From: Shigella phage sb4
Sequence record: PQ666542
DNA: 64,000 nucleotides
Strand: one strand, 5' to 3'
Part shown: one piece after another, positions 21,679 through 21,879 of the stretch
How positions within the stretch are numbered: position 1 is the first letter of the stretch
Layout: every line of letters begins with the position of its first letter
Translations under genes and position numbers: made by a program
The notes under the pieces: model-generated
Told to the model about the DNA's origin: nothing
Seen by the model: the letters and a program-made list of their open reading frames with translations, nothing else
The model's database searches: none

Positions 21679-21879
21679 ATGGTACAAAATTTAATGGCAC
21701 TTATTAATGCCATCAAAGGTAATAAAAAACGTATAGCTTTTACTATTTCTGCTATGGTAGGAATTTTACTTTGGAATTTTGTTTTATCGCCAGTTGCTAT
21801 TGCTCATGGCGTTAGTATTCCAGTAATTACTCTTGATACATTCGTAGACTTAGCATTTGCTTTAGTTGGGTTAATTTAA
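21679..21879 (+). CDS. small hydrophobic protein, 66 aa; the only credible plus-strand gene
   Basis: track ORF; AAGGAGG 6 nt before ATG; lies in the 56-61 gap, 3' end overlaps gp61 stop by 4 nt. Confidence 0.5.
   Translation: MVQNLMALINAIKGNKKRIAFTISAMVGILLWNFVLSPVAIAHGVSIPVITLDTFVDLAFALVGLI

Follow-up and report, generated by a model that had tools for sequence, protein, structure and literature searches.

A small plus-strand gene conserved between genes 56 and 61 of T-even phages, probably expressed late and predicted to encode a single-pass inner-membrane protein

Superinfection exclusion must be set up early in infection, and T4 Imm and Sp, both encoded by minus-strand genes, are expressed early; two transmembrane (TM) segments are present in Imm, whereas Sp is secreted into the periplasm. 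Holins typically end in a charged, hydrophilic C-terminal tail, and T4-type phages already use holin T. A further family of small phage proteins, phrog_2024, also known as RB69ORF029w or RB32ORF030w and represented in phage VR7 by VR7ORF033w, carries the PHROG annotation of unknown function. Nolan et al. 2006 described RB69ORF029w as a novel ORF with a predicted TM segment at residues 21 to 41, and no late promoter was listed at this site of RB69 (PMC1524935). With respect to transcription, early and middle transcripts of T4 have one polarity while late transcripts may have either, and A at -13 is the commonest variant of the late-promoter box (PMC2988020, PMC1524935); of the 50 T4 late promoters listed, 32 match perfectly and 9 carry this A (PMC2988020). 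T at -13 is poorly conserved among T4-like phages (Nolan et al. 2006, PMC1524935).

The ORF analyzed here, from a 64-kb stretch of DNA (the window), is a direct member of phrog_2024, with the same length, position, strand, and convergent overlap as RB69ORF029w, RB32ORF030w, and VR7ORF033w, and shows no difference in kind from the family. The window is from a Tequatrovirus whose closest record, Shigella phage sb2, is 99.5% identical over 21550-21950 and colinear over 20-34 kb with about 2 to 3% differences. As a hypothetical protein is already listed here in near-identical genomes, the window contributes nothing new of its own, and the ORF, catalogued in hundreds of genomes and in PHROGs, is known but uncharacterized. 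Our additions are modest: an unannotated copy in T4, a subfamily-wide distribution with two types of paralog, and a conserved late-promoter box not listed in the 2006 survey. Taken jointly, the data make it likely that this is a genuine phrog_2024 gene with late-only, gp55-type expression whose product is a single-pass inner-membrane protein acting via helix contacts. The elements of the locus are as follows.

21152..21607, minus strand: gene 56 (dCTPase), the upstream neighbor on the opposite strand, with its start (MAYFNE...) at 21607
21642..21666, minus strand: divergent gene 56 middle promoter, with MotA box TTGCTTTA at 21666->21659, an 11-nt spacer, and -10 element TATAAT at 21647->21642
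21649..21656, plus strand: T4 late-promoter-like box AATAAATA, an A(-13) variant of TATAAATA, 22 nt upstream of the ATG
21668..21674, plus strand: Shine-Dalgarno (SD) sequence AAGGAGG, ending 4 nt 5' of the ATG, read directly from the sequence
21679..21879, plus strand: coding sequence of a 66-aa small membrane protein (phrog_2024), from ORF call and translation, a phrog_2024 match at E=2.3e-30, and dN/dS of 0.09-0.43
21690..21717, minus strand: terminator-like hairpin and U-run downstream of gene 61, a 12-bp stem followed by TTTTGT, within codons 4-13 of the ORF
21876..21879, both strands: convergent stop overlap of 4 nt (ORF TAA at 21877-21879; gene 61 stop at 21878->21876)
21876..22904, minus strand: gene 61 (DNA primase), 342 aa, close to T4 gp61 and the constant companion of the ORF

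A preliminary description of this DNA had proposed a 66-aa hydrophobic ORF with a near-perfect SD as the only credible plus-strand gene, its 3' end overlapping the stop of gene 61 in convergent transcription, and all three points were confirmed. The ORF consists of 66 codons from an ATG start to a TAA stop (translation MVQNLMALINAIKGNKKRIAFTISAMVGILLWNFVLSPVAIAHGVSIPVITLDTFVDLAFALVGLI), and its product has a GRAVY of 1.30. In the predicted fold of the plus-strand mRNA, the SD and ATG are unpaired and the region is unstructured. AGGAGG, GGAGG, or AGGAG stands upstream of all orthologs but one, the downstream A-type copy in the tandem pair of phage NC-G. While the window contains 52 plus-strand ORFs of at least 50 aa that start with ATG, only the ORF at 21679-21879 has a strong SD, and nearly all of the others lie antisense within annotated minus-strand genes. 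The annotation of sb2 (PQ666540, the closest annotated record) agrees: in its first 50 kb, all 91 coding sequences are on the minus strand except the ORF homolog. The ORF would be the sole gene in the 64-kb window to be transcribed clockwise, probably late.

The ORF is not confined to the close relatives of the window. A tblastn search matched the protein to 692 phage records, and in 685 the match covers at least 80% of it. Its identity is at least 80% in 502 records and that of gp61 at least 95% in 501, and these near-equal counts suggest that the ORF occurs in practically every Tequatrovirus record. Presence in relatives, which the preliminary description had left to be checked in T2, T6, and RB genomes, was found, the family including a T6 record as well as RB69ORF029w and RB32ORF030w. 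The same arrangement, a plus-strand ORF that lies between genes 56 and 61 and converges on the latter, occurs in 12 other phages, spanning at least 10 Tevenvirinae genera, with orthologs at the same position as follows.

Tequatrovirus; Mosigvirus PhAPEC2 (RB69ORF029w); Gaprivervirus VR7 (VR7ORF033w)
Dhakavirus NC-G and QL01; Marfavirus-type Klebsiella phages; Kanagawavirus Q7622 and CIP9
Mosugukvirus PM2; Jiaodavirus KP182; Gelderlandvirus STML-198; Karamvirus CkP1

In most other genera, the 3' end of the ortholog overlaps gene 61 by 4 to 24 nt; NC-G and KP182 have a short gap between the two genes, and in VR7 a B-type copy (see below) intervenes. The ORF was not found at this locus in Krischvirus, Pseudotevenvirus, or Biquartavirus, all of which lie outside Tevenvirinae. 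This distribution speaks against the earlier suggestion of a lineage-specific insertion; the variable insertion at this locus is dam, as described below.

At the protein level, the phrog_2024 HMM aligns residues 2-66 with positions 1-65 of its 65, and the profile is matched by 16 of 16 diverse family members. These share a signature of 63 to 69 aa with one hydrophobic span and the pattern W-N-x4-P-x5-G-x3-P, and M1, W32, N33, P38, G44, and P48 are invariant in the 16-sequence alignment, in which identities fall to 20%. Pairwise dN/dS values between genera range from 0.09 to 0.43, and within Tequatrovirus the variable sites are distributed 8/2/13 over the three codon positions, with conservative replacements. 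These patterns of sequence evolution mark the ORF as a true protein-coding gene of the T-even subfamily.

Two sequence types can be distinguished: the A-type, to which the window ORF belongs, and a B-type reading MGTLFYQIWKL...LWNLLVVPIAATQG..., the proteins of the two types being about 20% identical (window versus QL01). Tandem copies occur in VR7 (A followed by B) and in NC-G (B followed by A), and most other genera retain a single type, either A or B. The B-type copy of VR7 (from position 2701 of its locus, L005) is unannotated and extends 72 nt into gene 61, and that of NC-G (L008, about 2301-2490) is apparently frameshifted. Frameshifted, truncated, or chimeric copies of the ORF were also seen in the low-quality genome ECCR664 (L007, 2456-2653) and in short metagenome contigs (P0026, P0031, P0032); these occasional broken copies are probably assembly errors.

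Beyond this subfamily, the family appears to be isolated. A profile search of 1.84 billion representatives returned 7 matches, all of them family members except for one weak, multi-stretch match (E=8.8e-4; 1,255 aa). The broader 16-sequence profile collected 83 homolog clusters, all of phage-type proteins of 41 to 73 aa, whose named sources are T4-like phages or enterobacterial samples and whose long contigs are phage-sized (about 165-175 kb). Neither of these profile searches yielded a homolog outside T4-like phages, a related-locus search with a narrow alignment yielded 7 loci, and the family HMM detected no paralog among the other ORFs of the window.

T4 itself carries the ORF at 17738-17938 (+) of NC_000866 (positions 3739-3939 of the extracted T4 locus, L002), 91% identical and with AAAGGAGG upstream. 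This copy is annotated neither in NC_000866 nor in AF158101 nor in the 1984 entry X01416, and the interval between genes 56 and 61 of T4 consists of dam followed by a 310-bp unannotated stretch containing the ORF. Entries identical to the T4 protein in the protein collection all come from read assemblies, and none has an NCBI or UniProt accession. Since T4 is the reference organism and NC_000866 and AF158101 lack a gene that is conserved subfamily-wide, studies built on these records lack it too. The T4 dam cassette (L002 2827-3738; window counterpart 21608-21678) is bounded precisely by the MotA box of the gene 56 promoter on one side and the ORF's SD on the other, and dam was not found anywhere in the 64-kb window. 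On this comparison, dam is the variable insertion and the ORF the constant feature of the interval. The preliminary description had taken the ORF to fill a gap where T4 carries its 61.x genes, which proved to be mistaken: in the window these genes (61.1, an RB32ORF033c-type ORF, sp, 61.4, and dmd) lie across gene 61, upstream of it, at 22907-24235. The position of 61.2 (23073-23429, minus strand) is occupied by the 118-aa RB32ORF033c-type ORF, compared with the 208-aa gp61.2 of T4. segF is likewise missing between soc and gene 56 in the window.

The upstream region of the ORF points to late expression. If the box AATAAATA is taken to cover -13 to -6 (geometry from PMC1524935), the predicted transcription start lies at about 21662 and the leader is about 17 nt long. 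The box is followed by TATAAA, an A/T-rich segment, and, as an A(-13) variant, agrees with the late-promoter pattern. In 10 of 12 orthologous upstream regions, which have otherwise diverged, ATAAATA occurs 19 to 29 nt 5' of the ATG; 20,000 shuffles give 0.36 such regions on average and never more than 4. The other two regions (STML-198 and CkP1) have TTAAATA. The ortholog boxes read TATAAATA in three cases (Klebsiella phage phi1_146055 and Enterobacter phages Q7622 and CIP9), in which the match is perfect, and otherwise AATAAATA, GATAAATA, CATAAATA, or ATTAAATA. T4 has kept a box, GATAAATA, despite the replacement of its upstream DNA by the dam cassette; because of dam, its upstream region is not homologous to that of the window. 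As a counterpoint, the box departs from the consensus at -13 both in the window (A) and in T4 (G).

WATAAATA is about twofold depleted on both strands of the window (13 sites versus 26.5 +/- 6.2 expected from shuffles), which is consistent with selection against stray late promoters. On the plus strand there are only 3 sites in 64 kb, and only the one at 21649-21656 precedes an SD and an ORF; the other two (10736 and 35956) are not followed by an ORF. On the minus strand, the TATAAATA at 21078-21085 is positioned as expected of the soc late promoter. Like such canonical T4 late genes (soc at 20810-21046 being the nearby example), the ORF combines an 8-bp A/T box about 20 to 30 nt before the start codon with a short leader and a strong SD, and neither has a -35 element. 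It differs from them in the A(-13) of its box (G in T4), in the overlap with a divergent middle promoter, and in standing alone on the plus strand within a 64-kb block of minus-strand genes, which in T4 are early and middle genes. A search for sigma-70-type promoters in the plus-strand DNA preceding the ORF gave no convincing candidate, the nearest being a weak 9/12 match inside gene 56. Since early and middle transcripts of T4 run along the other strand, a plus-strand ORF would be transcribed essentially only late. By its motif and by this polarity rule, the ORF is most likely a gp55-dependent late gene, in which the gp55-type promoter AATAAATA would drive an mRNA whose strong SD lies in a leader of about 17 nt. 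The promoter-leader sequence ATAAATATTAATTTAA(C)AGGAGGATA is shared almost unchanged by T4 (A-type, L002 3709-3738) and Dhakavirus QL01 (B-type, L010 about 1470-1500), and the leader is better conserved than the coding sequence.

This timing bears on the idea that the ORF encodes an early membrane effector of superinfection exclusion, immunity, or antidefense. Like T4 Imm, the product would be a small inner-membrane protein; Imm and Sp are likewise small envelope proteins of a similar size class that lack enzymatic domains, sp is located only 1.6 kb away, and the A and B paralog types together with a fast-evolving N terminus could reflect an arms race. However, the only promoter signal is of the late type, and the strand is not the one used in early and middle transcription of T4 (PMC2988020), which makes superinfection exclusion, as suggested in the preliminary description, unlikely. 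Furthermore, the TM core is strongly conserved throughout the subfamily, more like that of a housekeeping phage function, and sp is separately present at 23442-23735. Neither Imm nor Sp shows sequence similarity to the ORF product: sp scores nothing with the family HMM, and profile searches lead to phrog_2024 members only. No match to a defense system was found in PADLOC or in the other searches, and neither a type I toxin family (Hok/Ldr/TisB-like) nor a defense or toxin-antitoxin context emerged from Pfam, NCBIfam, and PADLOC or from the 83 homolog clusters. We therefore regard an early exclusion or antidefense role as improbable, and the toxin-like character considered in the same description is unsupported by any Pfam, NCBIfam, or PADLOC match.

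Several minus-strand elements share this short interval with the ORF. Window positions 21541-21647 align with T4 L002 2720-2826 at 86% identity, the aligned -10 element and mot box coincide with the features of P(M)16.53 annotated in X01416, and the T4 annotation places oriA at the 5' end of gene 56; from this alignment, the gene 56 middle promoter of the window, a textbook MotA-dependent one, is orthologous to P(M)16.53, the oriA promoter of T4. With the late box inside the spacer of this MotA promoter, the two promoters overlap and point in opposite directions. The T4 late box overlaps the -35 element of the dam promoter P(E)17.40 instead. We considered, and dropped, the late box as an occluder of the oriA middle promoter, since the arrangement is not conserved: dam lies between the two in T4, and the VR7 box is outside the spacer. 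Downstream of gene 61, the hairpin at 21690-21717 folds with -13.3 kcal/mol as minus-strand RNA (z=-3.7), compared with -8.9 kcal/mol (z=-1.9) for the T4 equivalent and z=-0.3 for the plus strand, and by this modeling it could terminate gene 61 transcripts. No intrinsic plus-strand terminator was found downstream of the ORF in the window, so that late transcription would continue into gene 61 in the antisense direction; NC-G has a hairpin after its ORF copy.

These elements are the basis for a noncoding reading, according to which the ORF is untranslated and the interval is kept as regulatory DNA or RNA, containing a gene 61 terminator, the promoters of 56 and dam, and an antisense late transcript that damps primase. 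A minus-strand terminator-like hairpin lies inside the ORF, divergent promoters overlap its upstream region, the lack of a plus-strand terminator would make the late transcript antisense to gene 61, and the ORF was never called in two curated T4 records. Nevertheless, the frame is intact across genera at 20 to 55% amino acid identity, with the same invariant W, N, P, G, and P and with dN/dS below 0.45, and a strong SD is kept in every genus. The hairpin, moreover, is confined to Tequatrovirus sequences, whereas the ORF is subfamily-wide, and regulation is compatible with coding in any case. A purely regulatory interval is thus highly improbable.

For the genuine gene that we favor, we predict a product that crosses the inner membrane once. 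Its only long hydrophobic span covers approximately residues 19-43 and is preceded by the basic stretch KGNKKR; for RB69ORF029w, a TM segment had been predicted at 21-41. By prediction, the product is a small hydrophobic membrane protein, as the preliminary description had suggested. The AF2 model (mean pLDDT of 74) has helices at 2-14, 16-42, and 52-65, with the invariant G44 and P48 in the loop at 43-51. The C-terminal helix is amphipathic, with conserved acidic residues, D53 and D57 in the A-type and E in the B-type. The charge distribution (positive-inside rule) would place the N terminus in the cytoplasm and the C terminus in the periplasm. The invariant Asn in the middle of the TM segment, with a Pro five residues later, looks like the kind of feature that mediates helix-helix association.

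Sequence searches of Pfam, NCBIfam, PADLOC, and the PDB gave only noise above E=0.01, and fold searches of BFVD and the PDB gave only the ORF's own orthologs or meaningless helical matches. Lacking an enzymatic domain, for which 66 aa leave no room, the protein would have to act through membrane helix contacts. In this scenario, a short basic N-terminal helix (KGNKKR) would lie in the cytoplasm, followed by one TM helix (about 19-43) bearing the invariant Trp-Asn and the Pro five residues on, and then by a Gly/Pro-containing turn and, facing the periplasm, a short C-terminal helix that is acidic and amphipathic. The protein may thus act by intramembrane helix-helix contacts, either in self-association or with a phage or host membrane partner.

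What such a protein might do late in infection can be narrowed somewhat by comparison with the lysis proteins. A holin or pinholin-type hole-former that permeabilizes the inner membrane would be small, very hydrophobic, and probably late, and the polar Asn in the TM segment suits oligomerization; with T4 T and RI and with class II and III holins and pinholins, the ORF product shares the inferred late timing, the inner-membrane location, the small size, and a polar TM residue. One homolog, from OE5505, is even named 'Holin' in UniProt. However, the protein matches no Pfam or PHROG holin family, its sole PHROG match being phrog_2024; it has a single clear TM segment, its C terminus (...DLAFALVGLI) is hydrophobic rather than charged, and it has nothing like the large periplasmic domain present in both T and RI. 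Foldseek finds only the protein's own ortholog, which is the one bearing the submitter label 'Holin', and rI is separately present in the window at 60391-60693. We consider a hole-forming function unlikely. A resemblance of 'FVLSP' to the signal-anchor of RI is at chance level, and RI here reads 'AFALSPP'.

Another reading makes the protein a late membrane cofactor of particle assembly, or a minor virion or ejection component, for example in prohead initiation or as an inner-membrane channel. This would go well with a late-type promoter and conservation throughout the subfamily, and the T6 record bears the label 'putative head morphogenesis protein'; since the ORF is not in the reference database, its product would have been missed in T4 proteomics, and tryptic digestion leaves a single 48-residue hydrophobic peptide that is hard to detect. 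On the other hand, the ORF is far from the structural gene clusters and is absent from T4-like phages outside Tevenvirinae that have the same virion architecture, which leaves an assembly or virion role with a low probability. All other database names for homologs are 'hypothetical', and the labels 'Holin' and 'putative head morphogenesis protein' are both unsupported.

For the late inner-membrane protein proposed here, a role in tuning envelope or lysis events late in infection, for example through holin T, the antiholin RI, or membrane integrity, is possible but tentative; against a lysis role, the ORF is not adjacent to any lysis gene. The more specific picture of an overlooked T-even core gene, whose late inner-membrane product uses its Trp-Asn...Pro helix contacts to control holin T and RI, and hence lysis inhibition, or membrane-bound assembly or ejection, is speculative and rather doubtful. 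Small membrane proteins such as the ORF product are routinely missed, and this one could turn out to be a new factor in late membrane processes, for instance in the timing or inhibition of lysis or in the integrity of the envelope. No literature on the ORF was found under the ORF names, 61.-1, or dam.1, or in T4 ribosome-profiling and transcription start site-map work.

Elsewhere in the window, gene 43 (DNA polymerase, 29880-32576, minus strand) contains an in-frame TAA at 32043-32045 (...DEVPQ*ILDRVIYMPF...), which splits it into ORFs of 177 and 713 aa. This TAA is either an ochre mutation or a sequencing error; sb2 differs from the window at 32045.
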